Shown piece after piece: positions 6,628 to 32,000 of a DNA stretch of 32,000 nucleotides (positions are counted from its first letter, which is position 1; each line of letters starts with the position of its first letter). Position numbers and translations under genes: made by a program. Source of the DNA: Ignicoccus pacificus DSM 13166 (GTDB lineage Archaea > Thermoproteota > Thermoprotei_A > Sulfolobales > Ignicoccaceae); contig CP006868.1 of the NCBI GenBank assembly GCA_025340205.1, forward strand, positions 540,001 to 572,000. The letters are read 5' to 3'. A model generated the notes under the pieces. It was not told the origin of the DNA, searched no databases, and saw only the letters and a program-made list of their open reading frames with translations.

Positions 6628-7113
6628 TTGGATAACATGGTCAAGGCCGTGGCAGTTGGCTCCTTCCTATTATCAATAGCGATAGGCTTAATTGACTACA
6701 AGGCCTTTGAAGGAACCGTTTCTCCCTTGACTTCAGCTGCCGCCATCGCTTCCGTCGCCGCCTTCGTGGCCCTAGTCCTCTTGGGAGAGGACTCCCCGTC
6801 TTGGCACTTGAAGCTCGTGGAGGGATTGATATGGAGCGCTCTGGCCTTGGACATACTCCACGTAATTGCCCTAGCTTTGGGCGTACCCGTTCACAAGTAC
6901 GCTACCAATATCTTGTACTTCTTCTTTGGTTACGCTGAAACAAAGGAAATCAAGCTATTTGGTCTAAAGCCGTTCGAAATAGGTCCAAAGCCCTTCACCG
7001 CTAAGAGCTTAGCCATAGATCCAGCATCTATAATGTTCGTCGCCTATTACTTAACTTGGGGTAGGAGGAAGCTCAACGAAGTCATCAAAAAGAAGAAGAG
7101 CAAGAAGAAATAA
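6628..7113 (+). CDS. integral membrane protein, Lys-rich C-terminal tail
   Basis: 161 aa with at least four hydrophobic spans (for example AVAVGSFLLSIAIGLI and AAAIASVAAFVALVLL). It ends KKKKSKKK. Confidence 0.65.
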   Translation: MDNMVKAVAVGSFLLSIAIGLIDYKAFEGTVSPLTSAAAIASVAAFVALVLLGEDSPSWHLKLVEGLIWSALALDILHVIALALGVPVHKYATNILYFFFGYAETKEIKLFGLKPFEIGPKPFTAKSLAIDPASIMFVAYYLTWGRRKLNEVIKKKKSKKK

Positions 7114-7544
7114 GGTCTTTTCGTCCTTTTCCTTCAATGGTGTTCTGTGCAGTCTTTACTATGAGATGTTGAGAACTATCATCTCCTTTGAACCTTAACT
7201 CTTTATTCCCCTTATTTTGGATTTCCTACTTTACCTCTCTATCCGCTTACTCATAATTTGTCCTTGAGGTTTCTTCCAACATTTGTCTTGGTTAAGCTTA
7301 AGGTACTTATAGCTTCGTACAAGGATTTTTATGGAAGTATGAGCATCATTACTTTGTTCGTCTCTACAGTCTTATTCAATAACGTAATACATACTAGAAA
7401 AGTTCAAGAGTCTCTCTAAAGCTTGGTTTTGAAGAAAAATGAAAAGAATGAAAATAAAGATTTACGTCTATGGGAAAGGTGACTATAAATTCGTGAGACA
7501 TAGAGTGGGAGAAAAAGAAAAAAGTGATGGAATCCATCAATTCA

Positions 7545-7790
7545 TCATTCTTCATCGCTCTCATCTTCTTTGATCGTCTTTACTACGATCCCGATTAGAG
7601 ACTCTATCATAGCGGCAACGATGGAAGCTACTTTATCTTCTATGAGATCGTCAGTAGGAGCTCCCTTGAGTTCTGGATAGTCTTCGAGTAGTTCCTTTAT
7701 TGATTCTTCTGCTCTTCTATGACATCATTAGTAATATCTATCCTTAGTGAAACGTTTTCGGACCTAATTTCTATGCGTTTGGGAATACAC
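7545..7790 (-). pseudogene. possible decayed gene remnant inside the ORF-free AT-rich region
   Basis: By hand translation of the minus strand, one frame reads IGRCIPKRIEIRSENVSLRIDITNDVIEEQKNQ then stops. A second frame continues RRAEESIKELLEDYPELKGAPTDDLIEDKVASIVAAMIESLIGIVVKTIKEDESDEE and stops at 7545-7547. Both look like protein sequence, but neither has a start codon and they are out of frame with each other. Confidence 0.25.
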
Positions 7791-7923
7791 CTCCCTATCT
7801 TTTACCACCAGGAGTATATTACTCTCCGGATCCTATATATTCTATAATTTGAAATTGTAGAGAATGTAAACCAAAATTTTACCTTTCTCGATGCACAAGA
7901 TATTAACAACATCTCGAAAAATA

Positions 7924-8604
7924 CTACCCGTATACTCCCGAGATCTCTTCATAGGCAGCTATTATTCTATCCGCAACCAGCCAAGAATCCAAGATGGTCG
8001 GAAATATGTACGCCTTTTCCTTAGCTATTTTATATGCTTCCAACCCGAAGTCCCCTCTCGGAAAGCCTTGCACGACTATTGGATATTCCCTTCCCATTTC
8101 AGCTATCCTCTTCGGAGGAACCAACCTCCCTCCGTGTTCGAGCAAAACTATCCCTTCTGTACCTATCACCTTCTTCACCAAGTACTCCAGACCCATATTC
8201 CTGATTTCCATCAATGGCTCGCCCTCCTCTGGTACCCTTCCTTCTTCGAACAACTTCTCCATTATTCCCAAGAACCTCTCATAGCTCCTTATTGGCTTCA
8301 TCTTCGGATTAACGAAGATAACGTAATCATCCCTAGTATGCACGTAGACCTCCAACAGACCCCTTTGATTGAGAGGAGAAGCGAGAGCAGCTAACAAGAA
8401 GGCGAAGACCATATCTGGCCTTCCTCTCATCTCCTTATCCTTCAAAGACTTCATAGCATGGAAATGGTAGCTCTTATCCAAGATCACTTTGGTCGGAGGT
8501 TTCCTCCTTCTCTCAGCATAAGCTCTAATTTGAGGATGGGAAGCGATCTCTCTGGGAACGGTCTCCAAGGCAGAATATGCCATTATGATCCTCAGCTTTC
8601 TCAC
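7924..8604 (-). CDS. nep1: rRNA small-subunit pseudouridine methyltransferase Nep1 (SPOUT/EMG1 family)
   Basis: N-terminal LRIIMAYSALETVPREI, the RGRPDMVF motif (family RGRPDIVH) and a C-terminal FPRGDF...LDSWLV segment. 226 aa, GTG start. Confidence 0.85.
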   Translation of the reverse strand: MRKLRIIMAYSALETVPREIASHPQIRAYAERRRKPPTKVILDKSYHFHAMKSLKDKEMRGRPDMVFAFLLAALASPLNQRGLLEVYVHTRDDYVIFVNPKMKPIRSYERFLGIMEKLFEEGRVPEEGEPLMEIRNMGLEYLVKKVIGTEGIVLLEHGGRLVPPKRIAEMGREYPIVVQGFPRGDFGLEAYKIAKEKAYIFPTILDSWLVADRIIAAYEEISGVYG

Positions 8605-11887: not shown

Positions 11888-12820
11888 GTGGAGACCGTGT
11901 ACAACGTCCCCCTCAAGACCTTCAACTGGTTCGTTGAGATACAGACTCCGTGTTCTGCTCACATGCACGGAATAGTAAAAATGTTGTACTCTGGAAGGAG
12001 CAAGTACCAAGAGATAGTGGTGGCCGAGCTCTGTAACGTAGGAAAGGCACTCGTACTTGACGGCAAGATCCAGTCCTCCCTGTACGACGAGTGGATCTAC
12101 CACGAGAGCTTAGTTCACCCGGTAATGTTAGCTCATCCAAACCCCAAGAGGGTGGCCGTGATAGGTGGCGGGGAGGGTGCTACCATAAGGGAAGTCTTGA
12201 AGCACGACGTAGAGGAAGTAGTAATGGTTGACCTAGATGAGGAGGTAATTAAGGTAGCTAAGGAATACCTTCCCGAGTGGCACCAAGGAGCCTTCGACGA
12301 TCCTAGGACGAAGCTGGTAATTCAAGACGGGAGGAAGTTCTTGGAAGAGCTCGAGCCCGGAAGCTTCGACGTAATAATCCTAGACCTAGTCGATCCCACT
12401 GAAGGGGCTCCCGCCGCAAAGCTCTACACCAAGGAGTTCTATCAGCTCGTCAAGAGGGCGCTAAAGGACAACGGAATAATGGTTACCCAAGCTACCTCTA
12501 CTTCCTACACCTTAAAGATGTTCACAGTAATATACAGGACCGTAAAGGAGGTCTTCGAGAACGCCGGAGGTTATCATTCCTTCGTCCAAGCCTTCGACGC
12601 CACTTGGGGCTTCGTGTGGGGCTCTGACAAGCTGGATCCGTCGAAACTGAGCTCCGAGGAAATCGACAAGCTCATAAAGGAGAGGATAAAGGGAGAGCTG
12701 AAGTACTACGACGGAACCACTCACTTGGGCATGTTCGCCCTCCCCAAGCACGTCAGAAAGGCTATGGAAGAAGAAACCGTGGTCAGCACCGACGAGAAGC
12801 CCTTCCTCCTCGAGATATGA
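11888..12820 (+). CDS. speE: spermidine synthase / polyamine aminopropyltransferase
   Basis: SKYQEIVV, the AdoMet-site motif VIGGGEGATIREVLKH, MVDLDEEVI, and IILDLVDPTEGAPAAKLYT. Confidence 0.9.
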   Translation: METVYNVPLKTFNWFVEIQTPCSAHMHGIVKMLYSGRSKYQEIVVAELCNVGKALVLDGKIQSSLYDEWIYHESLVHPVMLAHPNPKRVAVIGGGEGATIREVLKHDVEEVVMVDLDEEVIKVAKEYLPEWHQGAFDDPRTKLVIQDGRKFLEELEPGSFDVIILDLVDPTEGAPAAKLYTKEFYQLVKRALKDNGIMVTQATSTSYTLKMFTVIYRTVKEVFENAGGYHSFVQAFDATWGFVWGSDKLDPSKLSSEEIDKLIKERIKGELKYYDGTTHLGMFALPKHVRKAMEEETVVSTDEKPFLLEI

Positions 12821-18405: not shown

Positions 18406-19374
18406 TTGTCCGAGCCGTCAAGGGCCCGTTTCTTAGGGAGGGTGAGCACAGCGAAGCGTATGATTTTAACGACTGATGTCCCATTTACTCCCGAGGGAAC
18501 GCTCATGTTGTACGGTACGTTCTTTCCGATCGGTATCGTAGCTATGCTCCTAGGCATGGCCAACAACGGCTTCTTGGCCATAAATGCCAACACCGCCTTC
18601 CTCCTAAACGCCACCACCGGGGCTTACACTCAGCTAGCCCTGCCCGGCAACGCCCTCTGCGCCGTGCCTTACGAGGGCATGGCACTAGTGGGCGTTCAGA
18701 ACGGCCAGCAGACTACCTTCCTGCTGGTCAGCGCCGACGGCAAGACTGCCCCGGTGAAGGGCGCAGTTGAGGGGAAGGTCCTAAGCTGTAGCGCCTATGG
18801 AGACTTGCTAGCCGTAAGCTACAAGGTAGGCAACGAGGTCAAGGTAGCGATTTACGCCATCGGTAAGGGAGGTACCAGCTTGGAGAAGACCATAGACCTA
18901 CCTGCCGTCAAGGGTGCCGATATGGTCCTCCTAGGACCCACCTACACCGCCGTCTACGGAGACTCCGGAATGTACGTCTACAAGGCCGGCAAGCCCGTAC
19001 AAGTGTGCAGCAAGCCCGTCGCCAAGGCTAGGGCCTATGGCGACATGGCTCTACTAGTGCTCAAGGGCGCCAACACTGTGATACTAATGGACGTACCCAA
19101 GGACGAGAAGGTCATAGTGTTAACTCCCAAGGAGGGAACCGTCACCGATGCTCTACTAATAGAGAACGCTGGCCCCAACAGCGCCATCCTAGTAGGTCTC
19201 AAGAACTCCGCCAAGGGACTAGTCCTATATAGAGGAAACTCCGAGGTCATGTCTGTAGGCGTCCAGAACGTCTGCTCCCTAGCTGCTAACGCTAACTTCG
19301 TGGGTGCCACCACCAAGGATCCCAACCTAGGAAACGGCGTGGCCGTAGTGCCTCTAGCTTGGTTCATGAAGTAA
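18406..19374 (+). CDS. hypothetical beta-rich protein with N-terminal hydrophobic anchor; GC-rich codon usage
   Basis: 322-aa ORF from a TTG at 18406. The ATG at 18460 is a more likely start, because gggagggtga precedes it. Hydrophobic segment FFPIGIVAMLLGMA, then repeated short beta-strand/Gly-turn blocks. No motif recognised. Confidence 0.7.
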   Translation: MSEPSRARFLGRVSTAKRMILTTDVPFTPEGTLMLYGTFFPIGIVAMLLGMANNGFLAINANTAFLLNATTGAYTQLALPGNALCAVPYEGMALVGVQNGQQTTFLLVSADGKTAPVKGAVEGKVLSCSAYGDLLAVSYKVGNEVKVAIYAIGKGGTSLEKTIDLPAVKGADMVLLGPTYTAVYGDSGMYVYKAGKPVQVCSKPVAKARAYGDMALLVLKGANTVILMDVPKDEKVIVLTPKEGTVTDALLIENAGPNSAILVGLKNSAKGLVLYRGNSEVMSVGVQNVCSLAANANFVGATTKDPNLGNGVAVVPLAWFMK

Positions 19375-23761: not shown

Positions 23762-23842
23762 ATTTCTTATAAATAACATTATCGAACATATAACGTTTGG
23801 TTTATACTCTTACTAACCTTAGTCCCTAAGGGTACCAAGGAT

Positions 23843-24472
23843 ATGAAAAGCAAGAACAAACAATGTCTTGTATGTGTCTCTGATACATGCTATGTTGGTG
23901 AATCAAAGAACGGATCTTGTATCGTGTTTCTAAAATTACAGCATGCAAGATATCTTAAGTGTCGTTGCTATGGAGAGACCTCTTATTCTAGGAAAATAAA
24001 CCTCTACCTCTACTTACCTCTTACACCTATTTATGAAACGTCTTTAGATGAAGCATTAAGTGTGACCTCATACAACGCTAAGAAAGTAAAGTCGAACGTA
24101 GTGGCATGTCTTAAAGAGATCATTCTTGAAGAACTTAGTGTGGATTGCAATTTTTGTCTTGACTATAACAAAAAGGCAATAGAAGCTCTACTTGTCTCCA
24201 AAGAGTTTGAAGAAGGATGCTTTAACGAAGACATAAGAGATATTGTCTACAAGACTATAGGTCATTATGTGAAGCTATCAATGCCATTTATCATTCACTC
24301 AGAACAATTCTCTCGAGATAAAGAGACAGGGGGTATTATACCATCGATCTTTTTTTCTAATTTATTAAATGTATATCTGAATCTTCCCTCGATGTCGCTT
24401 GGAACATTAGACGGTATAATAATAATTCCATTCACTGAAGCACTGTTACGTTGGATTATTTCTCCTAAATAG
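23843..24472 (+). CDS. hypothetical protein, Cys-rich N-terminus (AT-rich block)
   Basis: 209-aa ORF with an ATG start. N-terminal cysteines: CLVCVSDTC...C...CRC. A TATA-like ttataaata lies at 23767-23775. No family recognised. Confidence 0.5.
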   Translation: MKSKNKQCLVCVSDTCYVGESKNGSCIVFLKLQHARYLKCRCYGETSYSRKINLYLYLPLTPIYETSLDEALSVTSYNAKKVKSNVVACLKEIILEELSVDCNFCLDYNKKAIEALLVSKEFEEGCFNEDIRDIVYKTIGHYVKLSMPFIIHSEQFSRDKETGGIIPSIFFSNLLNVYLNLPSMSLGTLDGIIIIPFTEALLRWIISPK

Positions 24473-24488
24473 TACTTGGGCGATAAAG

Positions 24489-25433
24489 GTGAGAAGTATG
24501 CCCCAAAGAGCTAACAAAATCAAATACTATAGGGAGGTTCTTCTTCTTGGTAGCCATCGAAGATTTATTGGAATTCCAGGACTTTATGATCTTTTTGATA
24601 TAATTCTCAATAGAACTAGAGACATCTTGTTAGAAGATATCGGAACTGGAGGCCTTAGATCTCTAGCTAATGACATCATTCAAGTCAGAGGAAACGTAAA
24701 CGCACGGCTACGTCGACAACGATCTCTATTCAAACTATATTTTGATGTCGATATTAATCAATTGATTGCTGGGCCAGCAGTAGCCTTCGATTATGATACT
24801 GTGGAAAGAAACTTCTATATCCATACTATCTTGGGTTTTAGAACGATAAAGGCGCTCCTCTTAACACAAAATCCGATATTAAATGTTGCCGGGTCGATGT
24901 CTATACTAGCGTGGCTTGGTATTATATTAGACCTGCCCGGCTCTTGTTCTGGTCACTTGATAGAAGCTAAACTAGCTCATGATTTAGAGGTACCACACAT
25001 TTACATTCGTGAAGCAATTCGAAGAGTAAGGAGAGATTACAATACTGAAGAATATTATATTACCTTCTTTGACATGCCCGGCGTATGTTTTATTGCCTCT
25101 CTGCTTAAACATGAAGAAATAGAAGATTTGTGTAGTGGTATAGTCCAAATGAGTAGGGGGCTGATAGAAATAGTCCCCTATCCGCACGAAAGTATAGTGA
25201 TCAGAGGTACCACAGCAATGTTGAATGACCTTAGTGGAGCTAGGTTTATAACATTAGCCTTACCGAGCACACTAAGAGGTTTCATTGACCAAGTAATTCG
25301 TAAACCTACACTCTTAGAAATAGAGAATCAGCAAGGAAACCGAGCTATAGAGAGACTCTCGCTGTGCATGGCTTGTGCCCTAAAGGTACTTGCCGAGCAG
25401 ATAAGACGGATACCATTAGCATCCATAGAGTAG
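24489..25433 (+). CDS. hypothetical protein (AT-rich block)
   Basis: 314-aa ORF starting 16 nt after the previous ORF. Globular-looking composition. No motif recognised. Confidence 0.55.
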   Translation: MRSMPQRANKIKYYREVLLLGSHRRFIGIPGLYDLFDIILNRTRDILLEDIGTGGLRSLANDIIQVRGNVNARLRRQRSLFKLYFDVDINQLIAGPAVAFDYDTVERNFYIHTILGFRTIKALLLTQNPILNVAGSMSILAWLGIILDLPGSCSGHLIEAKLAHDLEVPHIYIREAIRRVRRDYNTEEYYITFFDMPGVCFIASLLKHEEIEDLCSGIVQMSRGLIEIVPYPHESIVIRGTTAMLNDLSGARFITLALPSTLRGFIDQVIRKPTLLEIENQQGNRAIERLSLCMACALKVLAEQIRRIPLASIE

Positions 25434-25518
25434 ATTAGCAAAGCTCTCTTGTTTCTAATACCTAAATCAAACATACATGGTACTTCTCACATTGTAATCA
25501 TTGTAATACCCCACGTGA

Positions 25519-25547
25519 GTGACCTTATTAATAGCCCCTTAGGTCAC
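25519..25547 (+). promoter_or_regulatory. rps27e promoter: TATA-like ttattaata bracketed by a 7-bp inverted repeat
   Basis: gtgacct (25519-25525) and aggtcac (25541-25547) flank ttattaata (25525-25533). The TATA centre lies about 37 nt upstream of the ATG at 25566. Confidence 0.45.
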
Positions 25548-25565
25548 CCTTGACCGGGGAGAAAC

Positions 25566-25775
25566 ATGCCGCGCAAGAGGAAGCTGTACAAGATATTGAC
25601 TCCAGAGCCCAGATCCAGGTTCATTAAGGTAAGGTGTCCCACGTGTGGAAACGAGCAAGTAGTGTTCTCCCATGCCACCTACCCGGCCAGCTGCCTCATG
25701 TGTGGAACCAAGCTGGTGGAGCCTACCGGAGGAAAGGCTAGGATCCTAGGAGAGCTAGTGAAGATCCTAGAGTGA
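25566..25775 (+). CDS. rps27e: 30S ribosomal protein S27e
   Basis: 69 aa with the zinc ribbon [14 protein letters not shown]...CLMCG...L.EPTGGKA, characteristic of eS27. Confidence 0.95.
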
Positions 25776-25790
25776 GTTTTTATTTATGAG
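25776..25790 (+). terminator. oligo-T tract after rps27e
   Basis: gtttttatttatg lies immediately after the TGA stop (25773-25775). Confidence 0.35.
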
Positions 25791-25873
25791 AAATCAAGAG
25801 TTCATCTTAATTACACGGTTCAAGCACAACAAAGCGAAAGTGATCCTGATAAAGGTTCCTTCCCTGTCTACCG

Positions 25874-27121
25874 TTGGGAGTTTTCTTGAGAACACGCTTC
25901 GCTAGATATTGGGGAAAGAAAGATGATGTGGATTTCCTCTTTAATGTAATAAAGGTAAAAGGGAAGAGCGTTATGGATCCCTTCGGTGGATCCGGTTCCT
26001 TGTTGTTCCTCGCCTCCAAGTTCGGTGCTTCCAAGACAATTTATGTAGATATTAACCCTTATGCCCATTATTTGGCAAGGTCCCTCCTCGTTAAATCGAA
26101 AACAAACGGAGTAGTAACGTTCATTGACTCCTTGGGCTCTCTTATACCTTATGTTAAAAATTCCCGTAAAGTAGAAGCAGAAGTCGGGGAGATCTACCCC
26201 TCAGACCCCCTCTACTGGGAGGACGACGAATGCTACCTGGATCGATCTAAGAGGGAGCGATGCTCCCCATTCGAAGGTGAACCGCTCTTCTGGTACCCCA
26301 CTTACCCGCTTCGATATGCCGACGGTACGCCTTTCCAAAAAAGGAGACAAGTGGAGAGAGTGGATCAGTTCTTCAGTAAGAGGGCCTTGATCGTGCTCTC
26401 TTATCTCTTTCATAAGATATCAGAGATAGGAGAAGATGGAAGAGTGCTACTCATATCCGCATTTCTGTCTTCTCTTTATCAGTCAAGCTTAATGGCTCGA
26501 GCGAACGGAGGCAGCTGGCCCGTTCAATGCTACTGGATACCAAGGAAACACATCGAGAGAAATCCTCTTAGGGTGTTCCTAAGGAAGCTTAAGATCGTTA
26601 CAAACGTTAACTCCGAAGCTCCCTTCGAAGAAGCCAAGAGTTTTGATGAATGGGATGAAGGAAAGGCGCTGCTCATCTGGAACGATGCCTTAAACGTACT
26701 GAAGGGTCTCGAGGAAGGAACGGTGGACGTCATAATCACGGATCCCCCGCACTTCGACGAAATCCAGTACTTGGAACTTAGCTTCTTGATGAACTCTTGG
26801 ATATGTTCCAAGGAGTGTTTAGAGAAGTTATTTGAGGAGGAAATAGTGGTGAACTACAAGAGGAAAAGAAGGCTTCATGATTACCTAAGAGCATTAGAGA
26901 ATCTTGGAGGACTAATAAGGGAAAAGGGAATAAGGAAATCCGTCTTTCTTTTACATGAAGAAAAAGAAGAGGTGCTAGAATCTATGATAGATGCTCTCTC
27001 GAGAGATCTAAAGATTGAGAAAGACATCACCATCGTCGCTTCGAAGCAAAGGAAAGTGGGGGCGAGGGTAAAAGGAGTGGAAGGTAGGACCTATAAGGTT
27101 GTAGTTCTCAGCGGGGGTTAA
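25874..27121 (+). CDS. amino (N6-A/N4-C type) DNA methyltransferase, motif order I then IV; resembles DUF1156-type methylases
   Basis: Motif I VMDPFGGSGSLLFLA (D at 25976), post-I YVDINPYAHYLA, and motif IV DVIITDPPHFDEIQYLELSFLMNSW (DPPH at 26741-26752). ARYWGKK and QFFSKRALIVLSYL recall the WWARRP and FT.RQLLAL blocks of DUF1156 methylases; this is from memory and not searched. TTG start. Confidence 0.8.
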   Translation: MGVFLRTRFARYWGKKDDVDFLFNVIKVKGKSVMDPFGGSGSLLFLASKFGASKTIYVDINPYAHYLARSLLVKSKTNGVVTFIDSLGSLIPYVKNSRKVEAEVGEIYPSDPLYWEDDECYLDRSKRERCSPFEGEPLFWYPTYPLRYADGTPFQKRRQVERVDQFFSKRALIVLSYLFHKISEIGEDGRVLLISAFLSSLYQSSLMARANGGSWPVQCYWIPRKHIERNPLRVFLRKLKIVTNVNSEAPFEEAKSFDEWDEGKALLIWNDALNVLKGLEEGTVDVIITDPPHFDEIQYLELSFLMNSWICSKECLEKLFEEEIVVNYKRKRRLHDYLRALENLGGLIREKGIRKSVFLLHEEKEEVLESMIDALSRDLKIEKDITIVASKQRKVGARVKGVEGRTYKVVVLSGG

Positions 27122-27124
27122 AGC

Positions 27125-27697
27125 GTGTCAGATGCTCACAATCTTCCAAAAGGAGTTAAAGCGGCAACAAGATCGTTCATAACCAGTTGTCCTCAATTCA
27201 AACCCCAGAAGAACTTCGCTGGAAAACACAACAAACTAGTAAAGAAACTGAAGGATAAATTAGCATCATGTGGCTTTGTATGTGAAACCGAAAGTTCGAT
27301 TAAAATCGAAGGTAGAGCTGGAAGAATCGACCTAAGTTGTGAAAGAGGTCATAACCTATACGTTATTGAAGTAAAAGGATTCGAACGTAGGGATCCTCAG
27401 CTTTTTCATCTAACTGACATACTTCAGCTAACGTCCTACGCGCTAGCGCTGAATAAGAAAAGAGATGTCATTAAAGCGATATTGCTCTACCGTGACGATG
27501 TGGAACATTTACTAAAATTAGATAACCCAAGTAAATGTTCCGCATTTCTCGAAAAGCGCGCTATAAGGTATGAAGATTATAAGGAACTAGTTGAAGAACT
27601 GCTCAACGCACCTATACCTTGGGGGAGGATAATAGGACCCTATTGTCTCTATTGTGTCAACTACGATCGTTGCTTCAACCTCTCTCAGGGGGGTTAA
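27125..27697 (+). CDS. Cas4/RecB-family PD-(D/E)xK nuclease with 4-Cys Fe-S cluster signature
   Basis: N-terminal Cys (TSCPQF), GRIDL (D69, nt 27329), VIEVKG (E82/K84, nt 27368-27376), QLTSY (the QxxxY motif) and C-terminal CLYCVNYDRC (CX2CX5C, nt 27644-27673). GTG start 3 nt after the methylase stop, with a G-rich SD-like tract upstream. Confidence 0.8.
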   Translation: MSDAHNLPKGVKAATRSFITSCPQFKPQKNFAGKHNKLVKKLKDKLASCGFVCETESSIKIEGRAGRIDLSCERGHNLYVIEVKGFERRDPQLFHLTDILQLTSYALALNKKRDVIKAILLYRDDVEHLLKLDNPSKCSAFLEKRAIRYEDYKELVEELLNAPIPWGRIIGPYCLYCVNYDRCFNLSQGG

Positions 27698-27700
27698 CTC

Positions 27701-30700
27701 ATGAGAACGTGGCTCTTCAAGAAACTCCGAAAAGAAGATAGGAAGGCAAGAATGATTTACCACGCTCTTGTCCAAGACCTAGTGTTAAACGACGTTGCTA
27801 CAATGCGAACGGGATATCCCCTTCACACTTTCCTAGTTACGGGCTTTGTCGAGAACGATGGTCAAAAGGTACCCAAGGCGGCATATTTCGTCTCTCCCTT
27901 ACCAGTCGTAATTCCAAGAACGGATATTAGATTAACCATGCCTCTTGAGTACGTGCTATATTCTTTCCTCTACACCGCTTACAGGTTAGAGGTCGGTCTT
28001 CCTGTATGTTTAAATGATTCCGCAGCACTCGTCAACGTTCCCCAAGAGTTCTTTAAAAATAGATATACGATAAAGAAGACGATAACTGAATGGGCCTTTG
28101 AAGATCCAAATAAGAACTTCGAAGAGGCTCTTATTTCCTTACTCTTAGACTTGGTTGACTCACTTTTACTGAGACCAACGACTCCCGACGTCTCATGGAG
28201 TGTGGATCCTTTACTTAGTAACGTACTAGAATATATTTCTGATCGCTTAGGAAAAATTATAAATATCGAGAAAGTAAAGAGAATGTTAAAGAGAGAGGGG
28301 TTGTCCGGATTACACTTCAAGAGCTTCCATGGTCTGTTAGTAAAACAACAAGCTGGTGCCTCCGCGTTACCAGACTACTCTAACGCGTTCAACGTGCTTC
28401 TCACTCCATCCGTAATTGAACTCCCCTCTGCAAAGGAGCTGTTCGAGTACGATTACAAGGAGGGTTTCTCCTACGACTTCTCTCAATTAAGGAACAAGCT
28501 TGAGGCGAGTATGACGAGCTTCCTAGGAGGAAGTGAGGAAGTCAAGAAGATCGTTGGGGCATTGTTCGAGACGCTTAAGGAACTGGGCTATACGCGAGCT
28601 TCTGCCTTTCAATACAGCTCGCTCTTGAAATTATTAGGGTCGGATAGTTCAAAGGAGAAATTAATCACCGTAGTATCTCCTACGGGAAGTGGGAAGACCC
28701 TTGTATTCTCACTATATTCAATGCTTAAGGTCCTTAAATACAAACTCGAAGGCAAATATAAAAAAGTGATCTTTGTCTATCCTAGAAAAACCTTGGAGGT
28801 TGATCAATTACAAAAGATCGTAGAGTTAATATTAACATTTAATCTCAAACTCCAAGAGAAAAAGATTAACAAAATAATCAAGATCGGTATAAGAGATGGT
28901 GATAGCCCTCAAAGACTTAGAAAGAAGGAAGAAATTAGAGGAATTAAAATAAAATTTAATAATAAAGAATATACTCTTTATCAAGGTATCCACGAAGATA
29001 AAGAAGCGAACTTCTTGGATAATAGGGTTCTTGAATATCTATATGTATGGGATGCTAAGGAAAACTCAAAAGAGAGAGATCCCTTTGAAGATGAAGAAAC
29101 TGATATAGTAATAACTAACCACTCTATGTTATATAAAAAAGCTATGGAGAAGAAAGGAGCTTTAAAGAACGTTGGCTTGATAGTGATCGATGAGGCCCAC
29201 GTCGTCTACAAGAGAGATTATTTAAGTACCATAAATGGGGCGCTAGCTCGCATCTACCAAGCAATAGCCGGATCTATATTAGAGAGAGAAACACTCGATG
29301 AGCTGAGCATTTCAGATGAGTTAGTGAACAAGTTCTTAGACAAGATAACTAATGAGCTTGAGGTCATGCTCTCAAGCGCCACCGCCGGCAGTAACGTACT
29401 TCTAAAGAACTCTTTCTTTACACAGAACATACAAGCGATAGTCGATCTAGGGCCTGTACCATTGAGTTCCTTGGAGGATTTCGCCTCTACTATCCTAGGC
29501 AAGAGAGTGGTTGAGGGGTACAGAAGGAGAAACGCCTTCATGACCCTAACCCCGCAGCCACCATCAAAAACTCTCAAGTCTCCATACAAACTCAAAGTTA
29601 TCTCAGCAGTCTCCACCTTCCATACTAAAAAATACCTCAATACCTTTGGTGAGATTTTAATAGATTTTACTCATGCGACCCTTGCATTGGAGAGATCCCA
29701 TCAGCTTGTATACGGAAAAAAGAAAAAGTACGTTTCACTAGCGTTTATTAACTCTAAAAAAGACATAAAAGATATCATGAAAATGTACGTGGAAAGATAT
29801 CTGGCTGAGGAAAGGGATCTAGCCGATAGGGCTCTCTTAACCGTAGATAAGGAAAGCTGGGTCGAATGGTCCCGATATCCAGAAACCTTCGCGAATACTT
29901 TAGAGGACAAACAAAGAGAGGGCAAATATGCATTCATTCTAAACTCTCAAGATTATCCCTTTTCCATCTCCTTGATCGACTCTAAAATTCGGAGGAGTGC
30001 GATAAAGCGCATAGGCATAGTCTTACAAGAAGCTGCTGAGAAGAGTGGTAACGCCTTTGAGTGGATAAATACAGACCCGCTACGCGACTTTCAAACCTTA
30101 AGCTTGTACTTGAACGTTTATGACATAAAAGCTCTTAGAAGCGGGTTCGAGAATCCTTACTTACTTATTACATCGTCGACGAACAATTACATAGCACAAA
30201 ACGTCTTGAATGCTGAACTTTGGGCCTATGATGTTACTCGAACCCATGATCTCAATTATAACGAAGATAGAAACAAATTAGAAGAAGCTCTTAAAAGAGG
30301 AAGAGCCTCGATATTATATCATCATGCTGACTTGAAGAAAGACATAAGAAGTTACTTAGAATCCGAAATCAAGAAGAAACCACCTCTAGTCCTTCTCGCA
30401 ACCTCTACGCTGGAAGTAGGAGTAGATTTACCGAACATACCCTTTGTAGTACAAGGAGGCATTGATTACGTCGAGACCGCTGACTTCTTGCAAAGAGTAG
30501 GAAGAAGCGGTCGTGCCGGAGAAACTTTCTTCATTTCCTTAGCAACTATCGTACTTAAAAACAGAGGCGTTGACAGTACGATCAGAAATGATGAAGAGTT
30601 AATAGAATATGCCGTAAACTTGAGACTGGGGCTGACCGCTTCCCCGCTAAGCGATCCTATAATAACTACCAAGCAAACGATTAGCCTAATCTACAATTTC

Positions 30701-31492
30701 AATAAGAATAAATATCCAGATATAATGGACATCATAAGGGATCGTGATGTCATAGGCTTTGTTAAAAGCGCCGCTATTGCTTACTCGGAATATCCGAAGG
30801 AATTTATACCCAATGTAACTAGAAACTTAAGAGTGTGGTTAATATACTATGCTACAGTGAAAGATGCTCTAGAAGGAGCTACACATACAAATAAGATTTC
30901 CGAGATAGGGTGTGATGAAGTAAATGAAAAAGAGATAATCAGCTTGCTATTAGCTAAGCTTTACTCGCCCCATATAACCATGGAACTTAAATCGCTCCTT
31001 CGCGAGCTCCTAAACACGCTCGAAATACCCACCAATCATAAGGAAGGTACAAAGTTCCTACTCATGATCAGTTCCTTCTTGGACCTAATTGATAAAAACG
31101 ATAAACTAACTGAACAAGAGCTAGAATTACTCGCTAAGGTGTTACGTTATCTCGCCCCAAGAGCATTACCTATCTTACCCACTTACCTACTAGACTATAT
31201 AATGAATAAGACCCTAAAAATTATAATAAGTAACGTAGATAAGGATAATAGAGAACTAATTAACTTAATGATCTGTATCTTGTATTGTGTTATAAAGAAC
31301 ATAAAGAGGGTGAGTGTTAAAGTAAGCAAAAGCTTTGAAGTGGATAGTTTGATAGATAGAGTGTTAAGAGATAACTTCTTTGGGTTATTCGAAGAATATG
31401 GGGCCCCAACGAATTCCAACAGCTGTGACGGACAGAGCTGCGATCCCAACTCTTTCCTCATGGCAAGTAGACCTCTGAGATATGAGAGGTGA
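27701..31492 (+). CDS. large SF2 DEAH-box helicase (1263 aa) with uncharacterised N- and C-terminal regions
   Basis: Motif I VSPTGSGKT (nt 28676 onward), Ia VYPRKTLEVDQ, II VIDEAH (DEAH at 29189-29200), III LSSAT, a IV-like YVSLAFINSKKD, YHHADL...R, V LLATSTLEVGVDLP and VI QRVGRSGRAG (30491-30520). ATG 3 nt after the nuclease stop. Confidence 0.9.
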   Translation: MRTWLFKKLRKEDRKARMIYHALVQDLVLNDVATMRTGYPLHTFLVTGFVENDGQKVPKAAYFVSPLPVVIPRTDIRLTMPLEYVLYSFLYTAYRLEVGLPVCLNDSAALVNVPQEFFKNRYTIKKTITEWAFEDPNKNFEEALISLLLDLVDSLLLRPTTPDVSWSVDPLLSNVLEYISDRLGKIINIEKVKRMLKREGLSGLHFKSFHGLLVKQQAGASALPDYSNAFNVLLTPSVIELPSAKELFEYDYKEGFSYDFSQLRNKLEASMTSFLGGSEEVKKIVGALFETLKELGYTRASAFQYSSLLKLLGSDSSKEKLITVVSPTGSGKTLVFSLYSMLKVLKYKLEGKYKKVIFVYPRKTLEVDQLQKIVELILTFNLKLQEKKINKIIKIGIRDGDSPQRLRKKEEIRGIKIKFNNKEYTLYQGIHEDKEANFLDNRVLEYLYVWDAKENSKERDPFEDEETDIVITNHSMLYKKAMEKKGALKNVGLIVIDEAHVVYKRDYLSTINGALARIYQAIAGSILERETLDELSISDELVNKFLDKITNELEVMLSSATAGSNVLLKNSFFTQNIQAIVDLGPVPLSSLEDFASTILGKRVVEGYRRRNAFMTLTPQPPSKTLKSPYKLKVISAVSTFHTKKYLNTFGEILIDFTHATLALERSHQLVYGKKKKYVSLAFINSKKDIKDIMKMYVERYLAEERDLADRALLTVDKESWVEWSRYPETFANTLEDKQREGKYAFILNSQDYPFSISLIDSKIRRSAIKRIGIVLQEAAEKSGNAFEWINTDPLRDFQTLSLYLNVYDIKALRSGFENPYLLITSSTNNYIAQNVLNAELWAYDVTRTHDLNYNEDRNKLEEALKRGRASILYHHADLKKDIRSYLESEIKKKPPLVLLATSTLEVGVDLPNIPFVVQGGIDYVETADFLQRVGRSGRAGETFFISLATIVLKNRGVDSTIRNDEELIEYAVNLRLGLTASPLSDPIITTKQTISLIYNFNKNKYPDIMDIIRDRDVIGFVKSAAIAYSEYPKEFIPNVTRNLRVWLIYYATVKDALEGATHTNKISEIGCDEVNEKEIISLLLAKLYSPHITMELKSLLRELLNTLEIPTNHKEGTKFLLMISSFLDLIDKNDKLTEQELELLAKVLRYLAPRALPILPTYLLDYIMNKTLKIIISNVDKDNRELINLMICILYCVIKNIKRVSVKVSKSFEVDSLIDRVLRDNFFGLFEEYGAPTNSNSCDGQSCDPNSFLMASRPLRYER

Positions 31493-32000
31493 ATGGAGAT
31501 GGTAAAGTTTCCCATGTTTTACTTAGTAAGAAATGGTTCTATAAAAGCCTTGACGTACTGTTCGAAGATTTGTGTACACAAAGGTACAATATCCATATTA
31601 TTATATGGAAATCCACTAAGGTATAACGCCAAAAATTGCATATTCGAAGCCATTGAGTACTCATTGCCAGAGGTAAACCACGCGGTTGAAAGCGACAACG
31701 ACTTAGCATCGCTTTGCAAGAACACTACGTGTATGAGCTACACTAATGATGAGAACTGCAAAAAAGCGTTAACTACCATATACTTACTGGATGAGGACTT
31801 CTATCAAGATCATAATAATAGTAATGTAATCGTAGTGTCCAAGTTGTGTGATACATCGAACAAGTTAGCATACGTTTACGCTCAAGCACAAGATGAATTT
31901 GATAAGAGACGTTACTCTCTTACGCTCCTCCTCCACGGATCCCCTTTTGAGAAACCCCAGAAGATCTCGAAGATCTTACTTAAGGGCAGTGTACCCCAAT
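31493..32000 (+). CDS. Cys-rich hypothetical protein, 5' partial (runs off the window)
   Basis: This ORF is not in the supplied track because it has no stop inside the window. By hand translation, the ATG at 31493 follows the helicase TGA directly and 169 codons are open to 31999 (MEMVKFPMFYLVRNGSIKALTYCSKICVHKG...). It has seven Cys. The SD-like gagaggtga lies at 31484-31492. Antisense ORFs 31195-31515 and 31519-31725 are rejected. Confidence 0.6.
   Translation, partial: MEMVKFPMFYLVRNGSIKALTYCSKICVHKGTISILLYGNPLRYNAKNCIFEAIEYSLPEVNHAVESDNDLASLCKNTTCMSYTNDENCKKALTTIYLLDEDFYQDHNNSNVIVVSKLCDTSNKLAYVYAQAQDEFDKRRYSLTLLLHGSPFEKPQKISKILLKGSVPQ

Follow-up and report, generated by a model that had tools for sequence, protein, structure and literature searches.

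We analysed a 32,000-nucleotide (nt) stretch of the genome of Ignicoccus pacificus DSM 13166 (CP006868.1, positions 540,001-572,000; hereafter the window, to which statements on genes missing from I. pacificus are confined) and found at its downstream end a four-gene cassette that resembles the defence system DISARM and carries a Cas4-like nuclease. The genes (IPA_03220 to IPA_03235, products UXD22285 to UXD22288) all lie on the forward strand, and all were deposited as hypothetical proteins. The first (25874..27121; IPA_03220, UXD22285.1) starts with TTG and encodes an amino-DNA methyltransferase of 415 amino acids (aa), recognised from its open reading frame (ORF), its motifs and weak Pfam and PADLOC matches. 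The second (27125..27697; IPA_03225, UXD22286.1), with a GTG start, encodes a stand-alone, 190-aa Cas4-like PD-(D/E)xK nuclease whose motifs and family matches include a four-cysteine pattern of the iron-sulfur (Fe-S) type. The third (27701..31492; IPA_03230, UXD22287.1), with an ATG start, encodes a 1263-aa YprA/DrmA-like DEAH helicase of superfamily 2 (SF2), identified by Pfam, profile and hhalign comparisons. The fourth (31493..32000; IPA_03235, UXD22288.1) is represented by its first 169 codons, whose translation is 100% identical to the start of the 734-aa protein P0063, a candidate DrmB-like partner of the OB-CON-DUF1998 type.

The four ORFs are separated by 3, 3 and 0 nt, with the junctions TAA-agc-GTG, TAA-ctc-ATG and TGA-ATG, and G-rich tracts (GGGGG or GAGGTGA) lie 5' of the three internal starts (GCGGGGGTTAAAGCGTG, CAGGGGGGTTAACTCATG and GAGAGGTGAATG). 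An ORF recheck reproduced exactly the positions, spacers and common strand given in an initial annotation of this DNA. The Shine-Dalgarno-like tracts that it had described precede every internal start, the motifs that it had named (DPFGGSG/DPPH, the Cas4/RecB signature and DEAH) are all present in the cassette proteins, and the last gene does continue past the window edge, to a full length of 734 aa.

Whether the four genes co-occur in the same order elsewhere, a check proposed in the initial annotation, was followed through the fourth protein. An exhaustive HMMER profile search of 1.84 billion proteins found 55 representatives of the partner family, which is confined to hyperthermophilic archaea. 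We compared 39 partner-protein lineages (at most 90% identity) on hot-spring and Thermoproteota contigs; the loci came from exact-protein look-ups, one genome scan (among the matches listed) and a metagenome scan that used the fourth protein as its query and gave 50 loci, and were annotated with hidden Markov models (HMMs) built for this analysis. Counting assessable lineages, the helicase gene lies directly upstream of the partner gene in 30 of 30. The Cas4-like nuclease is present in 29 of 30: in 25 of them its gene immediately precedes that of the helicase, and in the other 4 it lies downstream, on the other strand; L009 is the only lineage without it and has an nSTAND-like NTPase instead (L numbers denote lineages and their loci). 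An amino-methyltransferase gene lies downstream in 28 of 31. The canonical order is nuclease-helicase-partner-methylase; in I. pacificus the methylase gene precedes the other three. The cassette recurs in dozens of independent contigs, more than chance would give, and its four genes form a conserved, co-transcribed-looking unit.

Flanking genes differ among the loci: fragments of pAgo/Piwi and BrxL at one, Csx1 at another and housekeeping genes elsewhere. At some loci the neighbours are ordinary cellular genes, including aminoacyl-tRNA synthetases and thiamine genes, and radA is found close to one locus. In 90% clustering, each of the four I. pacificus proteins is a singleton. The differing flanks and this singleton status together argue for an accessory, horizontally moving cassette, not a housekeeping module. 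Because the protein collections hold no close homologue, we infer that other Ignicoccus genomes lack it.

Further genes accompany the cassette in some lineages. A conserved protein of ~460-480 aa with no Pfam match is encoded between partner and methylase in seven lineages (L128:10270-11655, with equivalents in L103, L126, L129, L131, L133 and L144) and upstream of the cassette in two (L145:620-2068 and L146:1222-2673); it may be an accessory component. Directly 5' of the nuclease gene, a pair of unknown proteins (~585-635 aa and ~380-410 aa, no Pfam match) is encoded in L006:6391-9353, L007:5256-8194 and L147:214-3364; these three lineages are divergent, and in L006 and L007 the partner is split into two ORFs. 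In L009:2486-5373, directly 5' of the helicase gene, a 422-aa unknown protein and the nSTAND-like NTPase (540 aa) are encoded, which may constitute an alternative sensor/effector module. A DUF1156-type methylase of ~940 aa, which marks a different predicted anti-phage system, is encoded at a distance of a few kilobases from the cassette in L010:9036-11846, L027:10715-12924 and L104:2226-5060, which is consistent with a defence-island context.

In the helicase, GSGKT and DEAH (residues 497-500) are invariant across the family. Pfam recognises the generic SF2 core only (DEAD and Helicase_C; ResIII, 3.4e-10), and PADLOC gives partial matches to DrmA (4.6e-18), SngC and DpdJ. The best match of the family profile in the PDB is YprA/MrfA (6ZNP, 1.1e-23). 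By hhalign, the protein aligned with a YprA-like helicase that carries an MZB (MrfA Zn-binding, formerly DUF1998) domain at E 3.9e-26, with 32% identity over RecA1, versus 2.7e-19 for an Lhr helicase, and the YprA-type motif Ia/Ib signatures YP(T/R)KsLxxDQ and DGD(S/T) are common to it and the MZB-bearing helicase. By sequence, the protein is YprA/DrmA-like, an assignment at the YprA-type level and not to the DrmA clade specifically. The initial annotation had recognised nothing in about 320 residues at either end, and profile searches of the PDB with these regions indeed gave no specific relatives, the C-terminal one drawing helical-bundle and coiled-coil matches only. The N-terminal ~300 aa are conserved within the family and specific to it; the C-terminal ~320 aa are helical, and a helical C-terminal domain has been described for DrmA (PMC12458937). 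Cas3-like matches are weak and confined to the generic C-terminal Helicase_C region, and HamB models match residues 848-941 only (again generic Helicase_C, 1.6e-8). A word-indexed search of 5.8 billion proteins yielded 11 homologues of similar length at 24-31% identity, the nearest at 31%.

The partner family has invariant residues H514 and H518 (LHGxSH), C606, C691, D693, C695, C698 and C705, with the C-terminal cluster consensus '...P.CFDGCxxC...C..(N)P'. The initial annotation had called the fourth ORF Cys-rich, and its 169 visible residues do contain 7 Cys, but the cluster that is conserved in the family lies outside the window (residues 606, 691, 695, 698 and 705); C23 alone looked conserved in the visible part, in a small alignment only. 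A word-index search with the 169-aa fragment gave no match. A similar cluster, 'HAVEH ... FVYDG.PGGSG ... C.C..DGCPNC....CG', occurs in a Nitrososphaeria YprA-like helicase whose MZB domain is recognised by Pfam. We built an MZB alignment from this helicase and nine plasmid-borne YprA-like helicases and compared it by hhalign with a 46-member partner alignment, which gave E 5e-5 and a probability of 67.5% over the Cys cluster; the HxxxH of the partner pairs with that of MZB only in an alternative alignment (E 0.07). In an AlphaFold2 (AF2) model of P0063, a beta-rich N-terminus (residues 10-285) is followed by a helical middle, then by beta strands and helices and the C-terminal Cys cluster, a predicted layout compatible with an OB-CON-DUF1998 module. 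An earlier AF2 model from a 5-sequence alignment (predicted local distance difference test score, pLDDT, 44) was not used, and a Foldseek search of BFVD with the P0063 model gave only meaningless matches. From the cluster and its similarity to MZB, the partner is probably a split-off DUF1998 (DrmB-like) protein. A PLD/HKD domain is absent from all four I. pacificus proteins, full-length P0063 included.

The nuclease carries the RecB/Cas4 motifs D69, E82-V-K84 and Q101xxxY105, invariant in six homologues, and a Cas4/AddB-type four-Cys pattern (C22 and C174-x2-C177-x5-C183) in which C174 and C177 are invariant; most motif residues are conserved in homologues. It matches the PADLOC Cas4 model at 7.6e-8 and TIGR00372 at 2.9e-7, the latter with 30.5 bits against a curated cutoff of 65. 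The match to Cas_Cas4 (PF01930) is likewise below cutoff (18.3 versus 22.7 bits), as is that to Pfam PDDEXK_1, and HamA (DUF1837) does not match the protein. No cas1, cas2 or other cas gene, HD domain, CRISPR array or tandem-repeat array is found in the window, nor as a rule in the core of the related loci. Cas4-like Fe-S nucleases resemble the nuclease domain of AddB.

In the methyltransferase, motif I (DPFGGSG, residue 35) and motif IV (DPPH, residue 290) are ~250 residues apart, in an alpha-like order. Its Pfam matches (N6_N4_Mtase and D12) are weak, and PADLOC offers MTase_II and a partial PglX match (9.3e-14); there is a partial match to the DUF1156 type, too. Across the loci the cassette methylase comes in two subtypes with identical motif order: SPPY in most loci (L100-L149 except L137, and L002, L006 and L007) and DPPH/DPPF in I. 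pacificus (window 25874-27121), L137 and the PLD-fused sister clade described below (L010, L011, L016 and L027). The closest relatives of the I. pacificus enzyme fall in the DPPH/DPPF group (L137, 4e-41; L010 and L027, ~1e-36). Judged by motif IV, DPPH looks N6-adenine-like and SPPY N4-cytosine-like. Neither subtype occurs in L009, where a C5 methylase lies nearby. Since the methylase type varies while the core stays constant, the modification module is exchangeable, which suggests that it has been swapped.

Independent support for the DrmB-like assignment comes from genomes of Sulfolobaceae, Stygiolobus, Thermoprotei and Desulfurococcaceae, which hold sister loci that encode a homologue of the partner fused to a C-terminal PLD domain. 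By hhalign, this homologue is related to the partner family with a probability of 99.1% (E 1.3e-18, 460 columns), and its PLD domain matches DrmC (2.2e-17), PLDc_2 (4e-13 to 4e-19) and DpdK (3e-9). The fused gene follows one for a shorter, related helicase, whose best PADLOC match is DpdJ (1.5e-37), and a DPPH/DPPF-type methylase accompanies them. Two of these loci (L011:1705-8228 and L016:2343-9009) also encode an Eco57I/PglX-like methylase of 1170-1210 aa and a second DEAD helicase of ~1000 aa, a gene content close to that of class 1 DISARM.

The classes of DISARM differ in the methylase and its companion: DrmMI goes with DrmD, an SNF2 helicase, and DrmMII goes with DrmE. In the 2018 account by Ofir and colleagues it reportedly comprises the helicase DrmA, the DUF1998 protein DrmB, the PLD nuclease DrmC and a DrmMI or DrmMII methylase. 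As in DISARM, the gene for a YprA-type SF2 helicase in the Ignicoccus cassette precedes a separate gene for a partner that bears a Cys cluster near its C-terminus; in both, a DNA methyltransferase and a nuclease share the operon and the type of methylase is interchangeable. The sister loci extend the likeness, with a DrmC-like PLD domain, a PglX-like methylase and a second helicase. Unlike DISARM, the cassette has no PLD protein; its stand-alone Cas4-like nuclease, encoded directly 5' of the helicase, is present in nearly every lineage, whereas DrmC is dispensable in DISARM. Its methylase is an alpha-type amino-methylase of small size (~400 aa) and differs from both the PglX-like DrmMI and the C5 enzyme DrmMII, and no SNF2/DrmD or DrmE gene lies in the window. 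The initial annotation had stressed the differences from DISARM and Hachiman. The absences that it had listed (PLD protein, specificity subunit, cas1/cas2 and CRISPR array) hold in the window, and the lack of PLD and of DrmD/DrmE does set the cassette apart, but the YprA/DrmA-like helicase, the probably DrmB-like fourth protein and the DrmC-like PLD of the sister loci bring it closer to DISARM than had been supposed. YprA-family helicases form a core common to DISARM, Dpd and Druantia and to three new systems, ARMADA, BRIGADE and TALON (Bell et al., bioRxiv 2025, PMC12458937). According to the same study, DISARM is the YprA branch in which helicase and OB-CON-DUF1998 are on separate genes, PD-(D/E)xK nucleases occasionally replace PLD nucleases in related systems (BRIGADE included), and 'many uncharacterized DISARM-like classes' exist. 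The YprA/DrmA-like helicase, probable split-off DUF1998 partner and PLD-fused sisters therefore place the cassette as a variant inside this DISARM/YprA-helicase world, not as a categorically new system. We do not file it as a DISARM member, because it lacks PLD and also DrmD/DrmE or a canonical DrmMI/MII, and regard it as an undescribed DISARM-like YprA-helicase system.

Other known systems are less similar. The AddAB/Cas4 family nucleases offer a functional analogy, in which a four-Cys Fe-S PD-(D/E)xK nuclease acts on DNA ends together with an SF helicase of 3'-5' polarity. The cassette nuclease conserves the RecB motifs and Cys pattern; it differs in not being fused to an inactive helicase scaffold, in having no link to cas1/cas2 and in scoring below the Cas4 cutoffs. 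Dpd and BRIGADE resemble the cassette through the sister-clade helicase, which matches DpdJ best, through the sister-clade PLD, which matches DpdK, and through BRIGADE swaps of PLD for PD-(D/E)xK; the cassette, in contrast, has no 7-deazaguanine (DpdA/Que) genes, a helicase split from its Zn cluster and an ordinary methylase. MrfA/YprA with MrfB (6ZNP, PMC7797055) provides the best solved relative of the helicase, the logic of helicase plus exonuclease and the top, not significant, structural match of the partner. However, MrfA has OB-CON-DUF1998 in-chain, MrfB is a DnaQ-type exonuclease, no methylase is involved and the pair is widespread and repair-associated. Hachiman likewise has a small PD-(D/E)xK-type nuclease just 5' of a large SF2 helicase, but it is a two-gene system without a methylase or DUF1998-like partner; it was rejected since HamA does not match the nuclease, HamB matches are generic only and two further genes are conserved in the cassette. 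We also rejected MADS (only a generic methylase match to mad2), Shango (SngC match limited to the helicase core) and a CRISPR-associated Cas4 (below curated thresholds, with no cas genes or array in the window). As the initial annotation had anticipated, the PADLOC HMM library yielded no named system whose architecture agrees with that of the cassette. Full-text literature searches gave no description of this gene set, a search for DrmB with Cas4 returned nothing relevant, and the searched text and supplements of PMC12458937 mention neither Ignicoccus, Cas4 nor the cassette accessions.

Taken together, we read the locus, at a probability of roughly two in three, as a defence cassette of the restriction-modification type in hyperthermophilic Thermoproteota, a DISARM-like helicase-nuclease system that is gated by methylation and has a Cas4-type nuclease in the place of the PLD nuclease. 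Its anti-viral role is predicted from context and homology. The methyltransferase would mark host DNA, and the helicase (1263 aa) and partner (734 aa) would form a DrmA:DrmB-like heterodimer to which the partner contributes the Zn-cluster canopy (OB-CON-DUF1998) that is in-chain in other YprA helicases. The motor would load on single-stranded DNA (ssDNA) or the ends of unmethylated incoming DNA and translocate by ATP hydrolysis. The Cas4-like Fe-S nuclease, which appears translationally coupled directly 5' of the helicase, would replace DrmC and degrade the unwound strand, so that the whole heterotrimer might act as an AddAB-like helicase-nuclease machine. YprA helicases have 3'-5' polarity and Cas4 enzymes 5'-3' polarity, and labour may be divided as in AddAB, the motor moving 3'-5' along one strand and the Cas4-like exonuclease digesting the other strand 5'-3'. 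Complex formation, methylation gating and nuclease polarity are predictions of this model. The DrmA:DrmB heterodimer binds ssDNA overhangs and is auto-inhibited and methylation-repressed (Bravo et al. 2022, PMC9142583); in DISARM, DrmC is dispensable and the effector step has been left open (PMC9142583). A bolder version, which we offer tentatively and think somewhat less likely than its negation, is a distinct hyperthermophilic-archaeal system in which a Cas4-type Fe-S exonuclease is the obligate companion of a split, DrmA/DrmB-like YprA helicase for AddAB-like processive DNA destruction, gated by N4C/N6A methylation.

Several results weigh against the DISARM-like reading. No Pfam, PADLOC or NCBIfam model, DUF1998/MZB and DrmB included, matches the partner or its homologues. 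The DUF1998 link consists of ~67 aligned columns around the Cys motif, with a probability of 67.5%, or 24% for the PLD-fused group. The P0063 model that AF2 built from 46 aligned sequences is of moderate confidence (pLDDT 65; predicted template modelling score, pTM, 0.74). Among 350,542 PDB chains, Foldseek ranks MrfA (6ZNP) first for this model, at a level that is not significant (E 0.36, probability 0.6, TM ~0.1), and DrmB is outside the top 50. Partner profiles of the full protein and of the C-terminal half found nothing significant among PDB sequences, DrmB (7S9V_B) appearing at E 1.4, and the helicase profile matches Lhr nearly as well as YprA in the PDB search (2.3e-23 versus 1.1e-23). 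No DrmC, DrmD or DrmE is encoded in the window.

The strongest competing explanation is a module for DNA repair or end resection (MrfAB-, AddAB- or HerA-NurA-like). In it, a YprA/MrfA-type helicase would work with a dedicated exonuclease, next to a methylase that would be unrelated or have a regulatory part. The repair helicase MrfA is indeed the best solved relative of the helicase, Cas4-like Fe-S nucleases resemble the AddB nuclease domain, and one cassette locus lies near radA; a large YprA 'repair' branch also pairs with an exonuclease (PMC12458937). We nevertheless think this unlikely. A methylase is present in 28 of 31 assessable lineages and changes type while being kept in the operon, a pattern that fits self-marking and not repair. 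The family is extremely rare, patchy and low in GC, its neighbourhoods vary and include defence genes, and the sister loci hold a DrmC-like PLD and PglX-like methylases. Separation of the helicase from its DUF1998 partner is, moreover, typical of the defence (DISARM) branch (PMC12458937). Somewhat less probable again is cargo of an integrated virus, plasmid or mobile element, whose helicase-nuclease would serve element replication or recombination and whose methylase would serve anti-restriction. The low GC on both sides of the upstream ribosomal protein gene, the unknown low-GC ORFs there and the differing genomic contexts of the cassette would suit such an origin. Yet neither an integrase, transposase, capsid or replication-initiator gene nor a tRNA target or long flanking direct repeats were found in the window, and other loci are flanked by ordinary cellular genes; defence islands are themselves often element cargo, so this explanation overlaps with that of a defence cassette.

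Two more familiar machineries share parts with the cassette. Classical ATP-dependent restriction-modification (Type I, Type III or a Type ISP variant) with unusual subunit splitting would account for the ResIII match of the helicase (3.4e-10) and for the logic of methylase, nuclease and motor. The ResIII match, however, covers the generic SF2 core only, and the YprA and Lhr families are nearer relatives of the helicase. No HsdS-like subunit is present, nuclease and motor are separate proteins, the methylase is not of the Mod or HsdM type (HsdS, HsdM, Mod and HsdR families of Pfam, NCBIfam and PADLOC do not match the cassette proteins), and nothing in such systems corresponds to the conserved fourth protein, which makes this explanation very improbable. 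The case for a CRISPR-related module, a Cas4 nuclease with a Cas3-like helicase that would be a remnant of CRISPR-Cas adaptation or interference or act with it, is the poorest of all and borders on the negligible: Cas4 HMMs are the best named matches of the nuclease and the helicase has weak Cas3-like C-terminal matches, but the Cas4 score is far under the curated cutoff (30.5 versus 65 bits), the Cas3 matches cover the generic Helicase_C region only, and cas1, cas2, an HD domain and a repeat array are missing from the window and, as a rule, from the related loci.

Directly upstream of the cassette lies the gene for ribosomal protein S27e (25566-25775, forward strand; 54% GC), and a short intergenic region (25776..25873, same strand), read directly from the sequence, joins it to the methyltransferase gene. 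This region has a T-rich tract immediately after the S27e stop codon, and GATAAAGG, ~23 nt 5' of the methyltransferase TTG, could be a TATA box of a leaderless transcript. The initial annotation had placed the cassette in the most AT-rich part of the window. Its hand counts of G+C were exact (16/60 at 28801-28860, 37/60 at 18661-18720 and 26/60 at 12181-12240), and the cassette is low in GC relative to its surroundings (41.2% versus 49.2% for positions 1-23800), but two other stretches are as low or lower: 7000-8000 (37.2%) and 23801-25565 (38.3%). The latter contains two adjoining low-GC ORFs of 209 aa and 314 aa (23843-25433, forward strand; 38% GC; GC at third codon positions, GC3, 0.32-0.33) with no Pfam match, homologues of which were not seen near the cassette in other loci. 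The S27e gene (GC3 0.67) is thus flanked on both sides by foreign-looking low-GC segments. An AT-rich stretch of ~780 bp (~7113-7890, GC ~0.37) contains no ORF of at least 60 aa and no Rfam, tRNA or tandem-repeat match. Rfam, tRNA and tandem-repeat scans of the whole window gave no match, and no convincing direct repeats were found flanking the cassette.

Against the effector step that has been left open for DISARM (PMC9142583), a relative of its DrmA/DrmB core is here nearly always found with a small Fe-S Cas4-like nuclease. If the bolder version above is right, the cassette would give the DISARM family a defined, essential effector nuclease and form an evolutionary bridge that links innate immunity of the restriction-modification kind to the Cas4-like nucleases that serve CRISPR adaptation. 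As its signature protein is not seen by the Pfam, NCBIfam and PADLOC (v2.0.0) libraries, the cassette would be missed by annotation that relies on those models. It offers a compact, thermostable four-protein system in which helicase-nuclease coupling and methylation gating are directly testable, and it extends the YprA-helicase defence family by an archaeal branch that is restricted to hot springs.

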